Source: Candidatus Methanospirareceae archaeon (lineage in GTDB: Archaea > Halobacteriota > Syntropharchaeia > Alkanophagales > Methanospirareceae). Taken from it: a stretch of 64,000 bases of DNA. The stretch lies in NCBI GenBank assembly GCA_049975405.1, contig JBNGDK010000004.1, forward strand, positions 270 to 64,269, read 5' to 3'. Below the pieces are notes generated by a model that ran no database searches, was not told the DNA's origin, and worked only from the letters and a program-made list of their open reading frames with translations. Every line of letters begins with the position of its first letter. Position 1 is the first letter of the stretch. Shown here one piece after another: positions 7,966-47,804 of this stretch. The position numbers and the translations under genes were made by a program.

Positions 7966-8538
7966 ATGAGCGAGAAGATCCCGATTTTAAAGGGTAAAAA
8001 GATCAAAACGCGGATCTTACGGCCTTCTGAGTTCGAACAATTGCGTACCGGCGCGAAGAGGACGGAAAATCGTACTCTTCTGGATGCTTGTCTGCTGTTG
8101 GGCGCACGGTACACCGAGTGCAAGAAGATTCAGGATAATGCCCGGTGGTTCGATGGCAATTTCGTACATCTCCCCTCAGAGGCACAGCGGAAGGTGAAAC
8201 GGAAACAGGCTGAGCGATGGATCAGATTGAGCTCAATGGGAAAGGCAATTCTCCCGTACTTCTTCGAGAATAGGAAACGACTGCCTTCGATACAGGCCTG
8301 GGATTACGCACTGGTGCAGTGGGCAAAGCAGGGTGATTTAAATCCTGTTGGCATATCCGCACGGACCATGCGTAAGACCTACGAGAGCTGGTTGATTTTT
8401 TATTTCCCTGAAGCCACAAATTTAGTTTATCTTTCACAGGGACATACTACATTAACTTCTTTGCAACATTACATTAATTTGCCCTTTATAGAAGACGATA
8501 AAAAAAATATGGGTAAATGGGTAGAAGGATGGTTATGA
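7966..8538 (+). CDS. Tyrosine recombinase (phage-integrase family), catalytic domain only
   Basis: 190 aa. ARYTE is box I (Arg). ARTMRKTYESWL lines up with the HxLRHT box and keeps its Arg. SQGHTTLTSLQHY supplies the His and the Tyr nucleophile. There is no N-terminal core-binding domain. The 3' 150 nt of the gene are AT-rich. Confidence 0.6.
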   Translation: MSEKIPILKGKKIKTRILRPSEFEQLRTGAKRTENRTLLDACLLLGARYTECKKIQDNARWFDGNFVHLPSEAQRKVKRKQAERWIRLSSMGKAILPYFFENRKRLPSIQAWDYALVQWAKQGDLNPVGISARTMRKTYESWLIFYFPEATNLVYLSQGHTTLTSLQHYINLPFIEDDKKNMGKWVEGWL

Positions 8539-9300
8539 TACATTTGTTTTCGTATTAGATCCTTTGTGTCGTGTATGAAGCAATAATAATTTATTTTTCA
8601 TATATATATCTTTTTAAATTAAGAGAATAAAATTTTTAATTTGTTTTAATTTAAAAATCCATTTTATAGATAAAAGATTCTTACTACACTATTTTATTTA
8701 TATTATTGCCTTAATTTACCCAATATAAAAGAAGTAGATACTTACAATATTGTGCGTTTAAATTTTGCAATTTCGCTATAGCCAATATATTCCACCCATA
8801 TTAACCTTTAAGTTTTATAAAAACTTCAAGTATCATCGTCGGGTGGGAATCCCGAAAACCGCTCATATCACCGTTTATAATAGGAATAGACCGTATATCG
8901 TCCCACCTTCAGGAAGGTTGAAGTTTTATCATAAAACTTCAGGTCGCGTGCGCTGGTTGGGTACAATTATTCGTACACCAAAAATTATTTTGCGTTATAC
9001 TACTTCATCGCTTCTAAATTTGCGATTTCTGCGATTTTTTTAGTTCCATCCAATACATTCCATCTCCTTGACCCTGCGAGTGCATCAGAACTCAAATTTC
9101 GTTATTTTGATGAGCGTAACGTTTTATGGTAGGTTGATTTATGTGAACAAACACAAAAAGTGTTAAAAAAAGCGTATACTAATACTTTTTTATTAGATCC
9201 AGCTCATCAAAATAATATTATGTATGAATATCTTATTTGTTTAAGTCAAACTTTGCAAAAATATTTTTTTACCCTAATGATCTTTCCGTATCGCGACTCT
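8539..9300. other. AT-rich non-coding island (about 30% GC) with hairpin palindromes
   Basis: There is a sharp GC drop relative to flanking genes. Two related perfect hairpins occur: AAGTTTT-ATA-AAAACTT at 8810-8826 and GAAGTTTTAT-C-ATAAAACTTC at 8920-8940. The motif AAATTTGC(A/G)ATTTC is repeated at about 8761 and about 9017. No credible ORF is present. Confidence 0.5.
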
Positions 9301-10119
9301 TCAGTCGAGTTGAGCCATAAGGGCAACGATCTCAGGCGCCGAGCATACCGCTTCTGGCTGACCCTCGGTCAGGTCACAAATTAACGCGGTCAGGATCTGC
9401 TCCTCCTGCGCTTCGCCAAGGGTAATGTTTGCACCAATACGATAATAGCTGCAACCCAATACGGTGGTTGGAATGGTCCCGCCGGGGTTGTAGGAAGCAA
9501 AGACCTCGCTATCCACAATGGCATTCATATTATCATGAAGAGCGATGTACCCGTCGAATTTTGAAGTCACGTTGAGGAGGATCGGGTGCTCCCACTGGCA
9601 GGCGCTACAACTGGGAGCGCCAAAGAAATAAATGATCGGCTTGCCCTCCTCGGTACAGAGCGGATCCTCGCTCCTGATGTAGTCGCCAATGGTTTTACCA
9701 GACTGCTGTTCACGATTGCGCTGCTCCTCCAGTGCCCGTTGCGCTTCTACCCGCTCGACATAGTCGTCGATGTTCGTGGCGCCGAGGAAGAGCAGCTCGC
9801 CATCCTTCGTCATATACACCTCGCGCATCTCCGTGGCCCCGAGCATCGAGACAGTAACCGCGATTTCATACAGGCCCGATTGCTCATCCGTGGTAACTGA
9901 AGCCAGCGAAGCTTCGACACCCTGCGGAATAGCATACGTTGTGAGGAATTCGATTGCTCGTTCACCTGCCGCTTCCGGTGTCAGAGTATCTGCCGGTTTG
10001 GGAGTGGGGGGCGTAGACGGTGCTGAGGGCGCAGAGAAAACGGAATACCCTATGACCGCCCCGAGGATAATTCCCACGATAACACCTAGTACCAGAAAGC
10101 CAACCGATGCGGTCTTCAT
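9301..10119 (-). CDS. Membrane-anchored secreted thioredoxin-fold protein with a CxxC motif
   Basis: It has an N-terminal TM helix and a PT-rich linker. Its first domain (PEAAGERAIEFL...VYMTKDGELLF) is shared with the upstream paralog. The C-terminal domain carries APSCSACQWEH, the CxxC motif of a thioredoxin fold. Confidence 0.55.
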   Translation of the reverse strand: MKTASVGFLVLGVIVGIILGAVIGYSVFSAPSAPSTPPTPKPADTLTPEAAGERAIEFLTTYAIPQGVEASLASVTTDEQSGLYEIAVTVSMLGATEMREVYMTKDGELLFLGATNIDDYVERVEAQRALEEQRNREQQSGKTIGDYIRSEDPLCTEEGKPIIYFFGAPSCSACQWEHPILLNVTSKFDGYIALHDNMNAIVDSEVFASYNPGGTIPTTVLGCSYYRIGANITLGEAQEEQILTALICDLTEGQPEAVCSAPEIVALMAQLD

Positions 10120-10138
10120 CTCGTTTCAATCACCTCAT

Positions 10139-10594
10139 TCATGATAAGCCCTGAGTCGCTGCCATCTCCTCGAATTCGTCGATGTTTATCGCGCCCGGGA
10201 AGAGCACTGCACCATCTTTCGTGACATGCACTACCTGCTGTTCCCATGCACTCTGCGTGGAGACATTGACCGTAACCTGGTAGAGATTCGCCGTTTCCAG
10301 CTCGGTAACGTTCACTAATGAAACATTAATTTCAGGCGATACGGCATAATTCGCAAGGAAATCGATTGTGTGTGCGCCAGCTGCTTCCGGGCTCAGTACG
10401 CCGTCCGATGGTCCGGCGGACGACGATAGGAATGACTGACCTGAGAAGATGGAGCTGCCACTGGCTATACCCAGGATCAGGCCGATAATGAGCCCTATCG
10501 CCAGGAAGCCAATGTTAAAGCTCTGGTTGCCCTTGTCCTTCGATCTCTTCGGGGCCTCGCTTGACATCGTGAGTACCGCTAAAAGTACAGGCAT
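10139..10594 (-). CDS. Membrane-anchored paralog of the thioredoxin-fold protein's N-terminal domain, without a Trx domain
   Basis: It has a TM helix, then PEAAGAHTIDFLANYAV...VVHVTKDGAVLF, which is collinear with domain 1 of the 9301-10119 protein. Confidence 0.45.
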   Translation of the reverse strand: MPVLLAVLTMSSEAPKRSKDKGNQSFNIGFLAIGLIIGLILGIASGSSIFSGQSFLSSSAGPSDGVLSPEAAGAHTIDFLANYAVSPEINVSLVNVTELETANLYQVTVNVSTQSAWEQQVVHVTKDGAVLFPGAINIDEFEEMAATQGLS

Positions 10595-10646
10595 CCCTGT
10601 ATAAAAAGCTCGCGCTACTTTTTACCTTAAACGGTAAGTAGCTACT

Positions 10647-11663
10647 ATGGAGCAGAGTTCTTATGAGTTCGAGCTCGAGCGGGTAGCAGCTCTGGTACGA
10701 GAACGAGGAGCAACACGGGTGGGTTTACAGCTCCCTGATGGGCTCAGATCGGTGGCCGTTTCACTCGCCGACGAAATCGCGCAGGAGACTGGGGCCGTCG
10801 TGATTATCTCCGGTAATTCCTGCTATGGCGCCTGCGACATCGACGAGAAGCTGGCCTGTATGGTTGAGCTGCTCTTCCATTTCGGGCATTCGAGCGCGCT
10901 CTTCGCTCAGCGGCGCTTACGTACACCGACAGGTGATACGACGACCGGATTGCGGCCGGCCGAGACGGTGATCTTCATCGAGCTTAGAAGTACCAGTGAT
11001 ATCAAGCCCGTGGTGGAGCAGGCAGCAGCGGAGATTATCGGTGAGTGCGTTGGGCTTGTAGCGACCGTTCAGCACGTGCACGCCCTTGAAGATGCGAGGG
11101 CGGTACTCAGGCACGCGGGCAAGGCCGCTACGATAAGTAAAAGTTTACTGGTCGGCGCTGCCCCGGGATTGGTCCTGGGCTGCGAGTTCGGCGCTGCTCG
11201 TGCGGTGCCCAACGACGAGATTTTGTTCATCGGCAGTGGCGGCTTCCATCCCGCGGGCATCGCGCTGTACACGGGCAAGCGCGTTATTGCGGCCGATCCA
11301 TTCACCAAGCAGGTGCACGTATTCGAGCCCGATGAGCTGAGGAAGAAGCGCTACCTGGTTATTGCCCGTGCACTCGATGCGCAGACCTTTGGGATACTTG
11401 TAGGCACCAAGAGCGGCCAGTGCAAGCTCGAAGATGCGGTGGTCATGCAGCGAACGGCGATCGCTAAAGGCCGGAATGCGTACGTTATTGCGCTCGACGA
11501 GATCTGCGAGGCGAATTTACTCGGCTATGCCGTTGATGCGTTCGTTAACACTGCATGTCCACGCCTGGTAGAGGATTTGGTCGCGTTTAAGAAGCCCGTT
11601 CTCACAATCGCTGAGTTCGAAGTGGTGCTCGGCGAGCGGAGCTGGGATGAGTTGTGGCAATAG
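10647..11663 (+). CDS. dph2: Diphthamide biosynthesis protein Dph2, the radical-SAM 2-(3-amino-3-carboxypropyl)histidine synthase
   Basis: 338 aa with Dph2 three-domain architecture and conserved Cys residues (NSCYGACD, LVLGCEFG, NTACPRL). Confidence 0.85.
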   Translation: MEQSSYEFELERVAALVRERGATRVGLQLPDGLRSVAVSLADEIAQETGAVVIISGNSCYGACDIDEKLACMVELLFHFGHSSALFAQRRLRTPTGDTTTGLRPAETVIFIELRSTSDIKPVVEQAAAEIIGECVGLVATVQHVHALEDARAVLRHAGKAATISKSLLVGAAPGLVLGCEFGAARAVPNDEILFIGSGGFHPAGIALYTGKRVIAADPFTKQVHVFEPDELRKKRYLVIARALDAQTFGILVGTKSGQCKLEDAVVMQRTAIAKGRNAYVIALDEICEANLLGYAVDAFVNTACPRLVEDLVAFKKPVLTIAEFEVVLGERSWDELWQ

Positions 11664-11743
11664 CTGAGCGTGAATAGCGGGCAATACGAGGCCTAAATCC
11701 AGGATAACTTTATAGCCGGACGACCCCTTTAGGATGATGGAAG

Positions 11744-12454
11744 ATGACGCTCGGTATCATTGGCGGGACGAGTCTATTCGGCACGAAAGTGCTCGACGAT
11801 GTGGAGGAGCGCGAAGTAACGACTGCCTATGGCCCGGTTTACCTGCTTGTTACGACTGTTTATTCACAGGAGATCGTTTTCATTCCGCGGCACGGCAAGG
11901 ATCGAAACATTCCGCCGCATCAGATCAATTATAAAGCGAATATGCGCGTATTCAAGGACCTGGGCGTGGATAAAATCATCAGCGTTACTTCGGTGGGCAG
12001 TGTAAAGCGAGCTCTACCACCACGATCATTAATCGTTCCGCATGATTACATCGGATTGTTCAATATCCTCACGTATTACGACCACGAAATCGTTCATATT
12101 ACACCAGGCCTGGATGAAGCGTTGCGAAATCGGCTCATTGTTGCTGCACGATCACGGGCTATAAACATTGTGGAGCACGGTGTGTATTTCCAGACCCTCA
12201 GTCCGCGGCTGGAGACGAAAGCGGAGATAAATTTGATCAAGGATTATGCGGATATCGTGGGGATGAATATGGCGACGGAAGCGACGCTGGCGACGGAATT
12301 GGGCTTGCGCTACGCGAACATCAGCACCGTGGATAACTACGCGCATGGCATCGTCGAGGAGCCATTGGCTTATAAAGATATTGTCGCAGCGGCCGCACAA
12401 AGCCGCGCGGACGTGGAGAAGGTGTTGCTGAAGGTTATTGGAGATATGGACTGA
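11744..12454 (+). CDS. mtnP: 5'-methylthioadenosine / purine nucleoside phosphorylase (PNP family I)
   Basis: 236 aa with MTLGIIGGTSL, PRHGKD and VGMNMATEATLA, the PNP/MTAP motifs. Confidence 0.85.
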   Translation: MTLGIIGGTSLFGTKVLDDVEEREVTTAYGPVYLLVTTVYSQEIVFIPRHGKDRNIPPHQINYKANMRVFKDLGVDKIISVTSVGSVKRALPPRSLIVPHDYIGLFNILTYYDHEIVHITPGLDEALRNRLIVAARSRAINIVEHGVYFQTLSPRLETKAEINLIKDYADIVGMNMATEATLATELGLRYANISTVDNYAHGIVEEPLAYKDIVAAAAQSRADVEKVLLKVIGDMD

Positions 12455-12833
12455 ACTGGTCGGTTTCACGAAATAATCTCAATTGCATACTCATTGATCG
12501 GAGCTCATCTAACTATACTCTCTCCCCGTCAGCCCGTGTAAATCATAAACCAGCCTCAATATCTGCCTTATAATTCCACTTTTGCCCCCTTTTTTCTTCT
12601 GCAGCTCAAGCAATAATTTAGTTCTTTGTTATTTTTTTTATTTCAATAAAAATGTATATAAAGACTGCAAATAGCCCAGTGGTGAAAAAAATAAGAACTA
12701 TAGGTTTCCAAACAAGGTGCTGCACCGGTGTTATCGGCAGTAAACATAATGGTAGTACAACCCCAACAATAGTGAAATAAATGAGAGATATTATAAGCCA
12801 TTTAAAATTTTTTGGTAAAACTATTTGATTAAG

Positions 12834-13109
12834 TTAATTCATAAACTCTTTTAATATTGCGTTTTTACTAGATAGTTCCATCATTCTCTCCTCTTCTCTA
12901 ATAACGTTATTACTGTAATGTACTGTACCTGTGTGTTTTTCTTGCTCTAATTCCTTAATTTCTGCATTGATTTCGTTAATTCTGTTCTCTATTCGGCTTC
13001 TTTCACTTGCCATCATCATGACCCTACTTGTAACAAATGCACCCATTAATCCGACTATGGCCGCTGCTGATTGCGCTAGGGCAGAATAAAACCAATTTGG
13101 ATCAGTCAT
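12834..13109 (-). CDS. Small membrane / coiled-coil protein of unknown function, translationally coupled to the R-M enzyme
   Basis: 91 aa with one TM helix (ALAQSAAAIVGLMGAFV) followed by a coiled coil. There is a 4-nt overlap with the upstream R-M gene. The gene is AT-rich. Confidence 0.4.
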   Translation of the reverse strand: MTDPNWFYSALAQSAAAIVGLMGAFVTSRVMMMASERSRIENRINEINAEIKELEQEKHTGTVHYSNNVIREEERMMELSSKNAILKEFMN

Positions 13110-16090
13110 TCTCCCTCAACCACTTTTATCTCTTCCTCCGTTAGCCCATACAAGTCATAAACCAGTTTATCAATCTGCGCATCAACAATTTTTATTTGTC
13201 GTTCGTACAGCTCCTTGTCACGTTCCATCTTTGCCTCGTGGTATTTCTTCTGTAAATAGAGCATGTTCTCAACCAAGGAAACGACTTTATCGTGTTGTGC
13301 TTTTTCTTCGGGATCTGATAGATTAATTTTTGGAAAAGGTAAATCATAAAGTTTTGTTGCTTTTATTTGTGGAATAACTCTTAACTCCCCTTGAGTTGAT
13401 ATTTGATACAGGAATCCAAAAATGTTTGAGTGAAGTACTCCCAATACGAACTGATGTGATACCCTTGAATCCTTTTTTAACTTAAAAATATAAAGAGCAT
13501 CGGTCGCATAAAAATCTGAGCTTTCATCAAAGACAACGCTAATTTTTCTTGTTGTTGTCAAACCTATAAATTTTGGAGACTTAAAGATTCCCGGATTTCT
13601 TGGTCTATGAAGAGAAAACCATGGATGTTTGCCTTCTGCTACTTCACGGCATGTAATTTTGTCACGATATAAAGCTAAGTGATTTCTAACATTTGGATAT
13701 TTTTTAATATCATCTTTCCTTGTGAGATAAATAATTGATAAGGAGGAATCTATCGAACCATATCGCGATACATGTTGTCCAAGAACAACTTTCCGAAGTA
13801 CTTCCGGCTCGAACTCTTCTTTTTGGGCTTTCCAATCTTCAATAACAAAAGCCTCCAAGTAATCAGGAGTTATTCCTCTTTGAATTTCACCATCGAGAAT
13901 ACTCCTAAATTTAATATGATTATCCTTCAAACAGCTTAGGATCGAAACTCCTGAGAGATTTCTTGTAAAATAAGTGAAATACGAATCACTAAGCACAACA
14001 TTCTTCCAGTTCAGAAATGGGGAATACCCAATTTTAGAAAGTTGATTAGGTTTTTCATTAGAAGAAAAATCACGAAGATCAGCAACAATAAAGCCCCTTT
14101 TATTTGTTTCGTGTGCAACTCGTGAAACCACCAAAATTGTGGAGGTATTAAGGACATTCCTTCCGAAAACTTCAGTTCCCAGGTTTATTACAATATTAAC
14201 CTGAAAATCATTAATGAAGAAGCGGCGAAGATTTTGATTGTCTACTTGTGTTAGAAATGTGCTTGGGATTATCACCCCCAAGAGCCCTGATTTAGATAAA
14301 AGTTGCGATGATTTATGTAAGAAAAACATGAATGAATCAATCATTCTAATTATAATCTGGCTGTGCCTCTCGCGCAAATACTCTAGATCTTCATCTGGCA
14401 GAGTAGCACCCCACGGCGGATTCCCAATAACGCAATCGTACCCACCGCGTTTCATGATCTTCCCGAACCCTTTTTTGTCATCGTTCCAATCGAAGACGTT
14501 GATCCGCCGCATCTCATCTTCGTTAAAGAGCGTTGTCTGCTGCGTCTCGTAGAAATCGGGCCCGATGAGCGAATTCCCGCATTTGATATTATCTTCGAGA
14601 TTCGGCAGGATGCCCTCCAGCCCTAATTTCACCTGCTGGTTGATGCTCTCTCTACTCTCGTTCTCAAGCACCTTTAACAGCAAACTCAGTTTCGTTACTT
14701 CGACCGCCTGCTGGTCTATATCCACGCCGAAGATGTTATTGATAAGAATCCGCTTTTTCTCCGCCGTTGTCAGGTACCACTCGTTCTCTTTCACCTGAAA
14801 TACCGCGTTCTTGTGCTTCTTCGGCTGGTGACTGATGTACCAATCAAGATGATACTTCAGCAGGTACGTGTATGCGCCAATAAGGAAGCTCCCGGAGCCG
14901 CACGCAGGATCCAGAATCTTCAGTTCCGCGATCTCGTCCGGTGTCTTTCCCGTTATCAGCTTACCCACGGTGTTCTTGACAATATAGTCAACGATATACT
15001 GCGGCGTGTAATACACACCGCCCGCCTTTTTCACCTCCGGCTTCGTCTCCACCTTTGCCTGATGGCCCGCGGTCAATCGGATGACCTTACCCAGGAATTG
15101 CTCGTAAACGTTCCCCAGTATCTCGACTCCGAGCACTGAGAATTCGTACGGCGACTCTGGATAATACAGATGCCGAATGATCGTTTTCAAGACCTTATCA
15201 TCAATATGCAACGCGGGCGTTATTCTATCAGCCTCGAAATCGAATATGCCACTGTCGTATTTGGACTCCGCAAGTTTGAAGTGATTTAACAGGTGCTTGT
15301 AAACCTCATTGGATTCCGCTTTCGTCTGTAACTGGCCGTACGGTTCGATCCCTCTATCCTCGCAAATCCGCAGGAAGATGACTCGGTCTATAATCTTCTG
15401 TACCGCGTAGTTCAACTCGTAAATTGTTACGTCCGGATTGCGCAATGCGATGTTCTTGGCCAGCAACTCGCGCCAGGTCTCGATCTCCTTCAAAAATTCG
15501 GTATCAACTGCCGCCGTGCCCTTCTTGCCTTTGGTTGATTCCGCGTACCGATCAAAACTGCCTTTGAGTATCGCCTCTTTTGAAAAGACATCGTAGATCT
15601 CATCGAACCGATCGAGATAATCTTCAAACGTGTAATACGCGATCCTCCCCACACCAGTTTTGTCCGTTGCTTGAGGCTTGATCTGGCAGTCAAAGACCGA
15701 TAACTCCTCAAAATCCGTTAAGATCGATAACGGTAGTTTCGCACTCCATGCATACCGTCGCAACTGATACGAAGGACTGATATCCGCTTTTATGTTCACT
15801 GCCGGCTTCTTCGCTTCGACAAAGAACTTCCGTTGGCCACCAATCCTAAAGCTGTAATCCGGCGCCTTGGTTGAACGGCCCACTTTTATCGCGTCTTCGT
15901 GAATTACTTCCTTGTATTGCTCCGCATAGCCCTGGGCATTGCTCACATCCCAGCCCAGTGCTTCAAAGAAGGGATCAATAAATTCACGCCGGACCTGCGT
16001 CTCGTTATACGTAGATCGCTTATATACGTCAATGTTCGTTCGGAATCGCTCAACGAGTTCTTTAACCTTCTCCTTCGCTGCTTCCTTCAT
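13106..16090 (-). CDS. Type IIG/IIL fused restriction endonuclease and N6-adenine methyltransferase (MmeI/Eco57I-like)
   Basis: 994 aa. The N-terminus has a PD-(D/E)xK nuclease motif (APDYSF...FVEAKK). Methyltransferase motif I is ILDPACGSGSFL and motif IV is VIGNPPWGA. The C-terminal roughly 430 aa form the target-recognition region. The 3' half of the gene (about 13106-14400) is markedly AT-rich compared with the 5' half. Confidence 0.85.
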   Translation of the reverse strand: MKEAAKEKVKELVERFRTNIDVYKRSTYNETQVRREFIDPFFEALGWDVSNAQGYAEQYKEVIHEDAIKVGRSTKAPDYSFRIGGQRKFFVEAKKPAVNIKADISPSYQLRRYAWSAKLPLSILTDFEELSVFDCQIKPQATDKTGVGRIAYYTFEDYLDRFDEIYDVFSKEAILKGSFDRYAESTKGKKGTAAVDTEFLKEIETWRELLAKNIALRNPDVTIYELNYAVQKIIDRVIFLRICEDRGIEPYGQLQTKAESNEVYKHLLNHFKLAESKYDSGIFDFEADRITPALHIDDKVLKTIIRHLYYPESPYEFSVLGVEILGNVYEQFLGKVIRLTAGHQAKVETKPEVKKAGGVYYTPQYIVDYIVKNTVGKLITGKTPDEIAELKILDPACGSGSFLIGAYTYLLKYHLDWYISHQPKKHKNAVFQVKENEWYLTTAEKKRILINNIFGVDIDQQAVEVTKLSLLLKVLENESRESINQQVKLGLEGILPNLEDNIKCGNSLIGPDFYETQQTTLFNEDEMRRINVFDWNDDKKGFGKIMKRGGYDCVIGNPPWGATLPDEDLEYLRERHSQIIIRMIDSFMFFLHKSSQLLSKSGLLGVIIPSTFLTQVDNQNLRRFFINDFQVNIVINLGTEVFGRNVLNTSTILVVSRVAHETNKRGFIVADLRDFSSNEKPNQLSKIGYSPFLNWKNVVLSDSYFTYFTRNLSGVSILSCLKDNHIKFRSILDGEIQRGITPDYLEAFVIEDWKAQKEEFEPEVLRKVVLGQHVSRYGSIDSSLSIIYLTRKDDIKKYPNVRNHLALYRDKITCREVAEGKHPWFSLHRPRNPGIFKSPKFIGLTTTRKISVVFDESSDFYATDALYIFKLKKDSRVSHQFVLGVLHSNIFGFLYQISTQGELRVIPQIKATKLYDLPFPKINLSDPEEKAQHDKVVSLVENMLYLQKKYHEAKMERDKELYERQIKIVDAQIDKLVYDLYGLTEEEIKVVEGE

Positions 16091-17213
16091 TTATCTCCGT
16101 TTCTTTTTTAGATGCTTTCTTTTGACGCTCAGTCTTACGTTTTAGTTTCAATTTCATTTTATAATAGCTCAAGGGATGCCCAATCTTCTCACACACATCA
16201 TCACTATCACCGCAATTCCCGTAGGTCCGCATGGTTGAGCACGAGGGTGCTGAGTAGCGGGTACTGCCCAGCTCGCCCGAGATATGCACCACCTGATACC
16301 GCGTTCGCTCCTCATCGAAATCCGGTGAGCTCCTATAGAGCTCGATTATTTCGTCGACCGTCAAGCCCACGTTCAGCAAAAATGAGGTCACTGCGAACCG
16401 TGCGGTATGGGGCACATTAACCCCCGCACGGAGATTGCTCAGAATCGCCTTGATACAGGGCGGGAAGCTGGCAGGATCTTTTACCCGCATGCCCGTCTCA
16501 AACTCATTCTCATCTACCCGCTTCCGCCACGCTTCCAGCTCTGCTTTCAGATCCTTCGTGTACCGGAGCACCGATTCGCAGATCGCGGTGGGCACGTCAA
16601 GCGGCAGATCCTTACGTATACGCGCGTGAATCGCCTCTTGCAGAATACGCAAAAACTCGTTCGTTCGCAAATTCACCTGGCCGTTCTCGAGCGCACGATT
16701 CACCAGCTTCCAGCGCTTGTCACGGAGATTGACCGTGTAGCGCAGATATTCATTGAATGGGATTCGCACTGGAGCGTGCTCGTGCGGCAACTCCATAAAC
16801 TCGAGATGGAGCTCGAATTCACGTGCCATCTCGTAGAGTAGATCAGTATCGCCACCGCCAACCAATGACCCGGACGCCTCTTTCAGTGCCACGTACGCGG
16901 ATTTCGCCTCTGCGAGTGCAAAACGACGAACGAGGTGCTCGTTGTTGATACAGGAGACCAGAATACGAGCAAACGGATATGAGAGCAGCTCGATCTCCGC
17001 CTGAGTCCTGGTCATCACTGTCGGCTTACGAATCATTCCTGAACGGATCGTTTCACGCACGCGTTCCCTGCCACGCACGCGCGCACGCTCGAACGCGGCA
17101 CTGGAAATGAGCTCCTCGAGGGTAATGCCAGATGCTTCCACGTAACTCGTTGCCGCAGCCAGAAACGGAAAGTAGCTCAGGTGCGAAGCTTCTAATACCC
17201 CTTCCTCATTCAT
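16062..17213 (-). CDS. priL: DNA primase large subunit PriL
   Basis: 383 aa with a PriL helical domain and a C-terminal Fe-S cysteine set (CIKAIL...CSTMRTYGNCGD...C). Its 3' end overlaps the R-M start by 29 nt. Confidence 0.8.
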   Translation of the reverse strand: MNEEGVLEASHLSYFPFLAAATSYVEASGITLEELISSAAFERARVRGRERVRETIRSGMIRKPTVMTRTQAEIELLSYPFARILVSCINNEHLVRRFALAEAKSAYVALKEASGSLVGGGDTDLLYEMAREFELHLEFMELPHEHAPVRIPFNEYLRYTVNLRDKRWKLVNRALENGQVNLRTNEFLRILQEAIHARIRKDLPLDVPTAICESVLRYTKDLKAELEAWRKRVDENEFETGMRVKDPASFPPCIKAILSNLRAGVNVPHTARFAVTSFLLNVGLTVDEIIELYRSSPDFDEERTRYQVVHISGELGSTRYSAPSCSTMRTYGNCGDSDDVCEKIGHPLSYYKMKLKLKRKTERQKKASKKETEINEGSSEGEG

Positions 17214-44510: not shown

Positions 44511-47500
44511 TCAATACAGCCTTATCGCCGGTATCCAGTGCTCGTGTCGCTTACCGTTGACATCCACGAACTCCTCACAGGTGATAACCCCGCCAGTTGC
44601 GTTCCATGAGGGTCCATGGATGATCTGCGGATATGAACCGGTGCGTATGGTGTAGTTGTAGGTTTCGTTGGCGTAGAGCGTAAAACCACTGTAGTCTTGC
44701 CCGGAAGGAGCACCTCCTCCTCCACCACGACTAGGTAGGTTCGAGTTGTAAGTCTGGTTTGCAGATTCAGGAAATGGTTCATCAAACGTGAGGTTATGCC
44801 AGTCGCCGGTGTAGCCGTTCCACGTTGCGGTTACGTTCCAGCCGGTGCTGTTCCATATCTTCACGTATTCGGTATGCCCGCCCGATCCAGGATAGGAGTA
44901 GGTGTATAGCTTGGTAATGTTACGAAGATCGCAGCAAGGTGTAATAGTGCCGTTGTGCGTGCCTGAGATGCTCGGATAGGCGCCATTGCCGGTATCAAAC
45001 ATGTGCGGTGCCGCAACCACTACTAATGGCAGATAATCCTTGTTCGTGCCGCCTGGAATATCATAAGGTATATCTCCAAATCCATCGCCGTTTATATCTT
45101 CGCCCGTATAATCGCTCCAGTAGTTGCCGCCGAGCCACGAGCCGCCTAGGATGTTCGGTCCTGCAGTTTTACTGATGTTCCAGATGTTAATTCCGCCATC
45201 GTAAGCGTTTATTGGGTTGTCGAAGTAGTTGTTATAGATGGCATTGTTGCTTGAAGAATCAAACTCAATGCCGTAGGTGCTGTTCGATGCAATGTTGCCC
45301 ATCATCGTGTTGTTGCTTGAAAAATACAGTATAATACCGTTGTATGTGTTCGAGTTAGCGCTGTTGTTGGTGAGCGTGTTGTTGCTCGAATCAACCAGGA
45401 GAATGCCGTCGTTGCTGTTCAAATTAGCAGTATTACCCTTCAGCGTGTTATTACTTGAAGAAACCAATTGAATGCCGGCACCTTTGTTCAAGTTGGCGGT
45501 ATTACCCGTCAGCGTGTTGTTGTATGCATAAAACAGACCAATGCCGTCGAAATTATTCAAGGCGGTATTATTAGTCAGAGTGTTGTTGCTCGAAGCATAC
45601 AGGATAATGCCAAAATAGTTGTTCGATGCGGTGTTGTTGATAATAATGTTGTTATTTGAGGAGATTGAGATTCCTGCTTGCGGATAATTGGTCGCGTTTA
45701 TCGCTGTAAAGCCGTCCAGAACAATACCATCGTGAGAGAGCGTAATTGCGCTTCCTATATCGTCAGCATCTACAACGGGTTGACCGCCGCCCGTATCATT
45801 GCCGCGCAAAATGAGTTGTTTTGTCACGTTCACTCTTTCAGGATAAGTACCCGAGTCTACCAGAATCATATGCCCATCCAGGGTATTAGCATCATCAATT
45901 GCTGCTTGTATAGTGGCAAAGTCCTCGCTCGTGTTGAGATTATGGACCGAGGGAAAAGCCACAATGTAGTAGCTCTCGCCATTGAGTGAGACGGTGCAAA
46001 AATGAGAAATGTAGTTCCCGTATACCCCCACCCGATCACCGACATCGATATGAGATTCATAATATCCTATCGGGGGAGATGGTACCAAATCAACCCTTAG
46101 AGTAGCACAGGAAGTCTGCGGGCCTGAGATGATCTCTTCTACCGTTACATTCCACCATAACGCTCCGGGCTGCCCCGGGGGGTTCTTAGCCGTGACCCTG
46201 CCCGTGAACCGGATCTCCTGTGCGGCATCGACATCGAAAGCAAGCATCTCTATTTGGTCATCGCTTCCCGCCATGTAAATAGCATCTTCGATGATTTCCA
46301 AGATTTGTGATTGACTCTTTCCAGCTATAACACCGAGAGCGGCCAGCGTTAACGAGCCTCCACCTCCTCCGGTCTTTGTGTACTCGTTATCACGTCCAGG
46401 ATGAAGCACCACGGCGATCCAGCTGCCAAGGTCTAAGCCTTCCGTCATGGTTTCGTTCTCACTGAATTCGTTTTCGTACACCGAGGCAGCACCTTTCACA
46501 ATTCCACCTAACACAGTGGCAGCATGGCCCGTTTTCCAGCCCTTGGGACCTACAAGAACATAATCAACAGCATTCACACCGGTTGCCGTTCCCTCAAAAT
46601 AATAGTTATCTCCTTCTGCAACGACGGCCCGTGGCTGTGTTGCAGTCAGTCCCGGATAGATTAATCGTATCGTTATGCTTCCATCAGGATCTACGCTTGC
46701 GTAATCTCCAGGATAAATATTCCATTGTTTAGCATCATCGATGTACCCCTCGATCGTGTACGAACCGACTGTCATGCCCGAGGTGTCCCACTCCACCGTG
46801 AATTCCTTGTTCTCGTCCACTGCTTTATCGTTTGCTATTTGTTTCTGGTTTTTAACGATCACGTCAATGAACCTACCGGCATCTATCGCACCATTAATAT
46901 TTACCTTTTCGCCGATGATCGCCGTAGCAGGAACATCGAACGTTACTGTTGGTGGCATAACGGTAACATTTACGCTATCACTATCCTCAAAGGCTACGAT
47001 ATCCGCATCGTTCGCCCATGCCCCCCCAGGGTCATCAGGAGGAAGAAGAGGCCCACGTGCGTCTTCAGGTGCCTTGTACACTTTTATCGTGTACGTTCTC
47101 TGATCTGCAGCGGTTGTGGAAACTTTAAAATCGGCAATGCCATCTGAACCCGTCTTAAGCCATGCGGCTAAATTGGGTGCACCCGCAGAGATTACCGCAT
47201 TTCCAGATAATGCTTTTACATCACCAACAGGTTTTATTTCCGGTGCTTTATATTCGCTCACATTGGTAACAACGACATAAAACCAACTGTTTGGAACGCC
47301 TTGAACGGTCAGTACCATGTCCATCCCACGTACGACGGTATCATCGGCCGCCCCTATTGAGAGATTTTCACTAATAATAACGAAAGAGTTTGTAACCTCC
47401 GGGATAACATCGCTTACCCAACCGGATTTCAAGTACTTGTATCCATTGAAATCGATTTTCAACGGCAAAACATCAAATGACACGGGCCCGTACCAGTATG

Positions 47501-47804
47501 GAGCTCCAGCAATGATGTAGCCGCCGTCGGTCGTCTGCTGTACTGAGGAACCAACATCTAAGAAAGACCCGCCAAACGTCCTGTTCCGTTCTTCTTCTGA
47601 TGTTGCTATTCCGGGGATGCATCCTACGCTTATGAATACCCACGTTGCTAAAATGAGTGCCACCAGAAGGGCCTTCAAAATCCAGCTTTCGCTGTTCGTT
47701 TTTAAGCACCCCCCGTTAACCCTAGATAGGTAAAATGTGGATATAAGCTTTTCGGTTTTTTGCACGCTCAACTCATGACCGCTGGGTATCGCACGCCAAA
47801 ACAT
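44511..47804 (-). CDS. Large secreted/cell-surface protein with parallel beta-helix (NosD/PbH1-like) repeats, predicted glycoprotein
   Basis: 1097 aa with an N-terminal hydrophobic signal/anchor (LKALLVALILATWVFISVGC). About 8 tandem repeats of roughly 22 aa (SSNNTLTGNTANLNxGxGIxL) lie at 45250-45660. There are dozens of NxS/T sequons. Confidence 0.75.
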   Translation of the reverse strand: MFWRAIPSGHELSVQKTEKLISTFYLSRVNGGCLKTNSESWILKALLVALILATWVFISVGCIPGIATSEEERNRTFGGSFLDVGSSVQQTTDGGYIIAGAPYWYGPVSFDVLPLKIDFNGYKYLKSGWVSDVIPEVTNSFVIISENLSIGAADDTVVRGMDMVLTVQGVPNSWFYVVVTNVSEYKAPEIKPVGDVKALSGNAVISAGAPNLAAWLKTGSDGIADFKVSTTAADQRTYTIKVYKAPEDARGPLLPPDDPGGAWANDADIVAFEDSDSVNVTVMPPTVTFDVPATAIIGEKVNINGAIDAGRFIDVIVKNQKQIANDKAVDENKEFTVEWDTSGMTVGSYTIEGYIDDAKQWNIYPGDYASVDPDGSITIRLIYPGLTATQPRAVVAEGDNYYFEGTATGVNAVDYVLVGPKGWKTGHAATVLGGIVKGAASVYENEFSENETMTEGLDLGSWIAVVLHPGRDNEYTKTGGGGGSLTLAALGVIAGKSQSQILEIIEDAIYMAGSDDQIEMLAFDVDAAQEIRFTGRVTAKNPPGQPGALWWNVTVEEIISGPQTSCATLRVDLVPSPPIGYYESHIDVGDRVGVYGNYISHFCTVSLNGESYYIVAFPSVHNLNTSEDFATIQAAIDDANTLDGHMILVDSGTYPERVNVTKQLILRGNDTGGGQPVVDADDIGSAITLSHDGIVLDGFTAINATNYPQAGISISSNNNIIINNTASNNYFGIILYASSNNTLTNNTALNNFDGIGLFYAYNNTLTGNTANLNKGAGIQLVSSSNNTLKGNTANLNSNDGILLVDSSNNTLTNNSANSNTYNGIILYFSSNNTMMGNIASNSTYGIEFDSSSNNAIYNNYFDNPINAYDGGINIWNISKTAGPNILGGSWLGGNYWSDYTGEDINGDGFGDIPYDIPGGTNKDYLPLVVVAAPHMFDTGNGAYPSISGTHNGTITPCCDLRNITKLYTYSYPGSGGHTEYVKIWNSTGWNVTATWNGYTGDWHNLTFDEPFPESANQTYNSNLPSRGGGGGAPSGQDYSGFTLYANETYNYTIRTGSYPQIIHGPSWNATGGVITCEEFVDVNGKRHEHWIPAIRLY

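Follow-up and report, generated by a model that had tools for sequence, protein, structure and literature searches.

A 2010 report on Campylobacter and Streptococcus (PMC2853133) described how target-recognition domains (TRDs) are allelically substituted in Type IIG restriction-modification (RM) genes at a conserved locus, and the mobility of TRDs has been documented more generally (PMC3077401, PMC3467074). The 994-amino acid (aa) Type IIG RM gene described here lies in a 64,000-nucleotide (nt) stretch, termed the window, of a metagenome-assembled genome (MAG) contig from Candidatus Methanospirareceae (ANME-1c), and positions refer to this stretch unless a related locus (L numbers) is named. 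As in the published Type IIG cases, the flanks and the N-terminal part of the gene are common to the alleles found at one locus, and the C-terminal recognition region is unalignable. The window differs from these cases in its uncultured ANME-1c host, in the presence of three alleles and one deletion derivative at one locus, and in the extent of the exchanged unit, which starts just after methyltransferase motif IV, includes the distal methylase subdomain and has a conserved 3' tail as its right flank. Because both Type IIG allelic TRD substitution and TRD mobility are already published, the core finding is a well-resolved new example of a known process, with the arrays of tail copies in related loci being the only possibly new angle. 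It provides a clean natural case, in uncultured methane-oxidising archaea, of a fused RM enzyme apparently switching specificity by module replacement at a fixed chromosomal site. Adenine-specific methyltransferases are among the structurally variable, high-pN/pS ANME-1 genes of a 2026 study (PMC13385816).

Two further described systems come close to the window. In the Eco57I-type Type IIG enzymes (Pfam PF07669; PADLOC REase_MTase_IIG), as predicted for the window protein, one polypeptide has a PD-(D/E)xK nuclease at its N terminus, a TRD at its C terminus and a gamma-class N6-adenine methyltransferase between them. The shuffling or domain movement of TRDs in Type I HsdS subunits (PMC3077401, PMC3467074) likewise places variable recognition domains between conserved segments that serve as recombination substrates. 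Unlike HsdS, the window has one TRD module in a fused enzyme with no inverted repeats and no recombinase, and there is therefore no evidence of reversible phase variation.

The locus is best explained by a Type IIG RM gene resident between priL and mtnP, in which an interchangeable specificity cassette has been replaced by homologous recombination and beside which a small membrane-protein gene is a separate, older insert; we assign this explanation a probability of about 85%. The RM gene would have been in place at the priL-mtnP site before the split from at least three sequenced relatives, and aa 561 to approximately 923 would form the interchangeable cassette. Recombination in the 1.7-kb N-terminal module and in the 3' tail of approximately 200 nt would replace this cassette and nothing else, presumably altering the sequence that is methylated and cut. 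The small gene, which the relatives share and which a nonsense codon truncates in the window, would be an insert with a direct copy of the tail on either side. The gene order shows a Cas4-like gene on the plus strand followed on the minus strand by PCNA, priL, the RM gene and the small open reading frame (ORF), which is convergent with mtnP and dph2. The RM start overlaps the 3' end of priL by exactly 29 nt (16062-16090), and the start of the small ORF overlaps the RM stop as ATGA. The features, all on the minus strand except mtnP, are as follows.

11744-12454, plus strand: mtnP (MTAP), the convergent core gene bounding the island (NCBIfam TIGR01694, Pfam PNP_UDP_1; syntenic in L018 and L088).
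12472-16051, minus strand: island of 3.58 kb that is missing from the relative L088.
12520-12612, minus strand: degenerate RM tail copy 2, which repeats copy 1 in the same orientation and is matched by nhmmer over profile positions 26-157 (E=9e-6).
12618-13109, minus strand: small membrane-protein frame of 163 codons with an in-frame TAA at 12834-12836, annotated as aa 1-91.
13106-13320, minus strand: copy 1 of the conserved tail, at the C-terminal end of the RM gene, the putative right-hand recombination flank (nhmmer tail profile at 13287-13108, E=2e-51).
13106-16090, minus strand: intact Type IIG RM gene of 994 aa (PADLOC REase_MTase_IIG PDLC03604; Pfam HSDR_N, N6_Mtase, Eco57I, TaqI_C).
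13321-14410, minus strand: exchanged specificity module, aa 561 to approximately 923, with the distal methylase subdomain and a TaqI_C-type TRD (GC 0.35; GC at third codon positions, GC3, 0.28).
14411-14422, minus strand: motif IV NPPW, aa 557-560, the final conserved codons ahead of the break in homology and GC.
14411-16090, minus strand: N-terminal (N) module, aa 1-560, with the PD-(D/E)xK nuclease and the methyltransferase through motif IV (approximately 90% nt identity with L018 and L052).
15812-15862, minus strand: nuclease catalytic motif PD77-x13-E91-A-K93, identified in the sequence itself and falling within Pfam HSDR_N (aa 28-135).
16062-17213, minus strand: priL, DNA primase large subunit (Pfam DNA_primase_lrg, NCBIfam PriL).

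The comparison with syntenic relatives defines both edges of the exchanged module. Alignment of the window with the contig of Methanomicrobia archaeon Zod_Metabat.342 (L018) gives 86.7% identity over 21023-14410 and 83.4% over 13318-9269, with only 14410-13318 having no counterpart, and the homology from 13318 covers the tail, the small ORF, the spacer beyond it, mtnP and dph2. L052, L053 and L067 share the Cas4-like gene, PCNA, priL and the N module (88% nt identity) together with the 29-nt overlap, and diverge from the window at 14406; in the tails of L052, homology to the window resumes at 13326 and 13252. In 90-nt windows the identity to L018 and L052 remains at approximately 0.90 up to 14411 and is random in the next, and the GC break coincides with this loss of DNA homology within a few bases. 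The flanks and the N-terminal part are thus alignable in L018, L052 and L067 and the TRD is not, the pattern of allelic TRD substitution. Three unrelated modules occupy one syntenic locus across three genomes of approximately 87-90% identity, and at least two exchanges must therefore have occurred since their divergence. The retention of the tail, small ORF and spacer in L018 beside a different TRD argues that only the recognition module was exchanged, probably by recombination between the N module, ending after NPPW, and the 3' tail.

The two parts of the protein also have discordant relatives. The closest sequences to aa 1-560 are P0004 and P0008 (89-95% aa identity), which are encoded at the same priL locus and have unrelated recognition regions (at most 30% identity or no match). 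The recognition region of the window is common only to P0002, P0173 and P0189 (81-85%) and to a distant clade at approximately 55%. For P0002, encoded at L051 in an unlinked context, nucleotide identity to the window, measured in 90-nt windows, is 0.79 over the N module but 0.84 over the TRD. Segment-wise BLAST of the 120 best homologues extends this to the wider family, with approximately 100 of the 120, mostly from ANME-1/Methanophagales, being 80-94% identical over aa 1-560 and 60-82% over the last 94 aa, and only 20-35% identical or undetectable over the middle region, aa 561-900. A database search with the TRD alone gave 54 relatives and no near-identical donor, the best being fragments at 82-85% aa identity and the rest at most 63% (at most 56% where most of the module is covered). 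The exchanged module begins right after NPPW and hence takes in approximately 100 aa (aa 561-660; 14110-14410) that Pfam still gives to the Eco57I methylase; these are only 23-33% identical between alleles and co-vary with the TRD. In a separate observation, the RM protein P0024 of L014 (DATKXZ010000048.1, 'Desulfobacteria bacterium'), from a contig binned to a sulfate-reducing bacterium, has an N module 87-90% identical in aa to the archaeal one, which reflects either transfer between ANME archaea and a bacterial partner or a binning error.

The base composition changes at the same position. GC is 0.49 in 14411-16090, 0.35 in 13321-14410, 0.29-0.36 in the small-ORF frame and 0.39-0.46 in the remaining flank. 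The break sits at synonymous sites, with GC3 at 0.55-0.72 along aa 1-560 (0.64 for the module) and 0.20-0.30 along aa ~630-930 (0.28 for the module). Across the 49 remaining long ORFs of the window, GC3 averages 0.646 with a standard deviation of 0.053, and the lowest value elsewhere among 82 windows of 300 codons in the stretch is 0.43, which places the TRD far outside the host range. A sequence-only reading of the window had described a 994-aa gene with motif I, NPPW and a 29-nt overlap with priL, host-like GC in the 5' 1.7 kb and a drop in GC from about 14400, and all of these hold; codon usage proved not to be uniform, and the two halves, searched separately, have the different closest relatives given above. 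That reading had also proposed an AT-rich donor, for which there is no support. The TRD has a lower GC3 than the N module in 34 of 34 parsable family loci (mean difference 0.185, Wilcoxon p=3.6e-7), drawn from ANME-1, ANME-2c, Nitrospira, Acidobacteriota, Planctomycetota, Bacteroidales and cyanobacteria, the last including the Leptolyngbyaceae contig L027. The difference of 0.36 in the window is tied with L057 as the largest of the 34, and the same TRD has a GC3 of 0.35 in L051, the 1-kb flank there having a GC of approximately 0.41. AT-richness is therefore a property of the module pool of the family and indicates no particular donor. This is a caution for composition-based calls of transfer, as AT-rich recognition modules are general in the family and do not mark a particular recent event.

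The same family-wide composition raises an alternative to exchange, in which the low-GC module results from a compositional regime (for example, weaker selection at synonymous sites, or no GC-biased conversion in a non-recombining module) and has diverged in place. The uniform direction of the difference across archaea and many bacterial phyla is in its favour, as is the composition of L051, which means that the window copy is not simply donor-like. Such a regime may account for the AT-richness but not for the discordant relatives, and divergence in place is rejected on the step-like loss of identity to the syntenic relatives within one 90-nt window, across which the unlinked L051 gene stays at 0.84; we regard it as very improbable. 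The sequence-only reading had instead combined the TRD swap with a downstream cargo gene, such that one recombination with an AT-rich donor delivered the TRD, the small membrane-protein gene and the AT-rich flank. The swap itself is supported by the discordant halves and by the unalignable modules of L018 and L052, but its extension to the cargo is very improbable. Low GC does run unbroken from 14410 through 12500, and in the L052 lineage the TRD differs together with downstream cargo (p596 and an SLFN_AlbA_2 gene), the N module marking one limit of the segment and a tail copy the other, so that such events do occur in the family. However, the block of tail, small ORF, remnant and spacer is 81-97% identical in L018 despite the different TRD there, and the small ORF with its flanking tail is also present in L052 at 88%. 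The AT-rich small ORF was therefore present before these genomes diverged, and it is neither within the exchanged segment nor cargo of the TRD swap.

An assembly chimera of two co-occurring RM alleles, crossed within the N module and the tail, is the explanation to which we give least credence. In its favour, the sequence comes from a MAG contig, such samples are very rich in the family (at least 8000 matches), and the breakpoints fall at the edges of conserved sequence. Against this, the alleles are 80-90% identical in nt in their flanks and so share few long exact k-mers, and the reading frame is intact through both junctions. The same mosaic is present in independently assembled relatives and in L027, a contig of Leptolyngbyaceae cyanobacterium UHCC 1019 deposited without a MAG label and apparently from an isolate, and P0002 has the same junction of N module and TRD at approximately 81% nt identity. 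Replacement of a specificity cassette in a resident RM gene is thus retained as the explanation, and several points weigh against it in turn. With the best candidate donor at only 82-85% aa identity, the swap may be old as well as recent, and each of the three alleles is a candidate for the ancestral state. The evidence for both junctions, and for the TAA codon of the small gene, comes from single MAG contigs. The difference in specificity and the activity of the enzyme are predictions from sequence, which we infer as we do the direction and timing of each swap.

The history of the insertion site is visible in a further relative. In L088, which encodes PriL and PCNA 82% and 95% identical to those of the window, 128 bp between priL and mtnP stand in place of window positions 16051-12472, with flanks 86% and 81% identical. 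This short interval is not an unoccupied ancestral site. L088 positions 10100-10160 keep the first 13 RM codons, ATGAAGGACGAAGCC...AAAGAACTCGTTTGA, encoding MKDEARTKSKELV and then a stop, in overlap with the priL 3' end (compare window 16052-16090), and family members in other contexts conserve this RM N terminus, MKE.AK.K.KELVERFR. The apparent empty site is therefore a deletion scar and L088 a deletion derivative, and the RM gene was in place before these lineages split. A long-resident gene, not a recent arrival, fits the N module's host-like GC3, and L052 has the same 29-nt overlap of priL and RM. In the distant relatives L070 (8601-12017), L072 (1861-3088) and L077 (4948-6023), whose PriL proteins are 62-68% identical, other content of 1.2-3.4 kb occupies the priL-mtnP interval, or the distance from priL to the RM gene is 1 kb greater. 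These sequences make the interval a recurrent variable site in the lineage.

The small membrane-protein gene had been read as a 91-aa ORF (12834-13109) followed by a 380-bp AT-rich spacer. Its overlap with the RM stop is as described, but the ORF is not complete. Codon 92 (12834-12836) is TAA in the window and CAA in L018 and L052, and the frame beyond it runs on unshifted and conserved to a stop at 12618-12620, so that the 91 aa are the front part of a longer gene. The intact protein has 167 aa in both L018 and L052, and the in-frame TAA, with the frame after it still intact, suggests that the mutation is very recent, that the site is polymorphic or that the consensus is in error. The spacer consists of this coding frame, the tail remnant and approximately 65 nt; the degenerate tail copy directly follows the frame and has its counterpart in L018 at 8359-8454. 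The family to which this three-transmembrane (TM) protein of approximately 165 aa belongs comprises about 50 clusters, nearly all from ANME-1/Methanophagales; its N-terminal TM segment (DPNWFYSALAQSAAAIVG) is invariant, its coiled coil varies in length, and two further TM helices lie at the C terminus. An AlphaFold2 model has a pLDDT of 80 and four helices, with which Foldseek found nothing below E=0.8 in the PDB. No significant Pfam, NCBIfam or PADLOC family was matched, a PADLOC LmuB coiled-coil match at E=0.0036 being meaningless, and viral contigs gave only two weak N-terminal matches.

Across several contexts, the small ORF lies in physical linkage with the RM family. A functional link, such as the accessory defence or abortive-infection role suggested in the sequence-only reading, would be hypothetical. 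In L058-L060 the small ORF is ATGA-coupled behind a related RM gene in an unrelated context, in L052 it is the third cassette, in L061 it lies between tail copies, and at least 17 family members end by reading into the following tail copy in another frame. Among the compared contigs there is no syntenic relative with the RM gene but without the small ORF, L088 being without the whole island. The annotation of the neighbouring gene is corrected to a truncated member of an ANME-1 membrane-protein family that travels with the RM family.

The RM protein is predicted to be a single-polypeptide Eco57I-like Type IIG enzyme, and matches PADLOC REase_MTase_IIG PDLC03604 along its full length (E=1.9e-201). 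Pfam matches place HSDR_N at aa 28-135, N6_Mtase/Eco57I at aa 323-642 and, with a score above gathering, TaqI_C at aa 832-918. The gamma-class N6-adenine methyltransferase motifs are present as motif I, DPACGSG, at aa 394 and motif IV, NPPW, at aa 557. The nuclease residues PD77-x13-E91xK93 are intact, and the PD..ExK motif, motif I and motif IV occur in 120 of the 120 listed homologues. The PD-(D/E)xK nuclease is predicted to come first from the N terminus, then the methyltransferase, then the recognition domain of TaqI_C type, and at the C terminus a helical tail that is conserved, with nuclease, methyltransferase and recognition domain all on one chain as in Type IIG (Eco57I-like) enzymes. 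A phmmer search of the PDB with the 994-aa protein gave CamA, BseCI and BREX PglX chains, of which BseCI (7qw5) matches aa 737-951.

The MmeI family (Type IIL) is the model for specificity determined by the TRD, with a C-terminal module that can be exchanged or mutated. An assignment to this family had been made for the window protein and is ruled out by the domain content and the PDB search. In the Pfam scan of the 994-aa protein none of MmeI_N, MmeI_hel, MmeI_TRD and MmeI_C was found at E<=0.01, the MmeI_Mtase match scores 52 bits compared with 112 bits for Eco57I, and no MmeI chain is among the PDB phmmer matches. The lack of MmeI-specific domains together with the CamA, BseCI and PglX matches argues for the Eco57I-like class. 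BREX PglX/BrxX proteins have a related methylase core and a similar C-terminal region, as seen in partial matches to PDB 8c45 and 9ewz and to NCBIfam PglX. Unlike these, the window protein has a nuclease domain, it reaches no more than 104 bits with the NCBIfam PglX models, far short of the curated cut-off of 500, and the neighbours are priL, the small ORF and mtnP with no brx or pgl genes; identity with PglX is thus excluded.

The conserved 3' tail recurs downstream of the RM gene in related loci as direct, same-strand copies, in archaeal as well as bacterial loci. There are four copies in L052 (array at 8662-12799) and L061 (87-5164), three in L002 (7680-10873) and L057, and two each in L058 (3806-4637), L049, L005, L006, L011, L021 and L042. 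The diverse, defence-type cargo between copies includes HEPN/ApeA-like proteins, SLFN_AlbA_2, HEPN_RiboL-PSP, a PycC-like cyclase, a DSP-type phosphatase and the small TM protein, and further cargo, judged by eye from the sequence only, appears to include short toxin-antitoxin-like pairs and a Y1 (IS200-like) transposase. The right edge of every tail copy is the tail stop codon, often forming ATGA with the next start, and stand-alone tails often retain an open frame of 49-52 codons ending in this way. The left edge of stand-alone tails varies by cargo, at profile positions 1, 15, 21, 22, 35, 56 and 104. The unit of small ORF and tail is found at array position 1, 2 or 3 depending on the locus.

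In the window, tail copy 1 (13287-13108) and copy 2 (12612-12520) flank the small ORF as direct same-strand repeats, exceeding the length of >30 bp used to recognise insertion with long target duplication (Kobayashi group; PMC2853133). As in that process, described for RM-linked rearrangements, the small ORF and the cargo of related loci lie between direct repeats that duplicate the insertion point; here the repeats are approximately 75-180 nt long and the insertion point is the RM 3' end. The related loci differ in that the duplicated target is always the same coding tail, that insertions are serial with arrays of up to four tails, and that the cassette of small ORF and tail (from profile position ~22) recurs at differing array positions. 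An integron-like or site-specific cassette mechanism is ruled out by the cargo-dependent left edges and by the lack of a recombinase; the window island contains none, consisting of the RM gene and the small ORF only.

A tentative proposal, which we hold to be rather less probable than its negation, is that the tail of approximately 180 nt in this very widespread Type IIG family is a portable homology anchor that captures, stacks and shuffles defence cargo. Wherever tails form direct repeats, homologous recombination would excise cargo genes that have their own tail copy and re-insert them in a Campbell-type event, and the outcome would be co-oriented and often translationally coupled cassette arrays without a dedicated recombinase. 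The window would then contain an array of one cassette, namely the small ORF enclosed by tail 1 and the decayed tail 2. Decay of tandem units of RM gene and cargo could instead explain the arrays. A literature search gave nothing specific on tail-bracketed cassette arrays and, if confirmed as recombination-anchored capture, they would constitute a recombinase-free route for building defence islands.

Two other compositional features were noted in the window. A low-GC stretch at 8550-9300 (0.32 at 9000-9299) aligns poorly or not at all to the syntenic L018 and L088; within it 8804-9099 is 70-72% identical to these contigs with gaps elsewhere, and both flanks are 81-87% identical. The ORFs beside it, 7966-8538 and 9301-10119, have no Pfam match, and the stretch may be a second small variable spot. 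Among the other long ORFs, GC3 is lowest, at 0.51 compared with the mean of 0.65, in a 1097-aa NosD/beta-helix gene at 44511-47804 on the minus strand.

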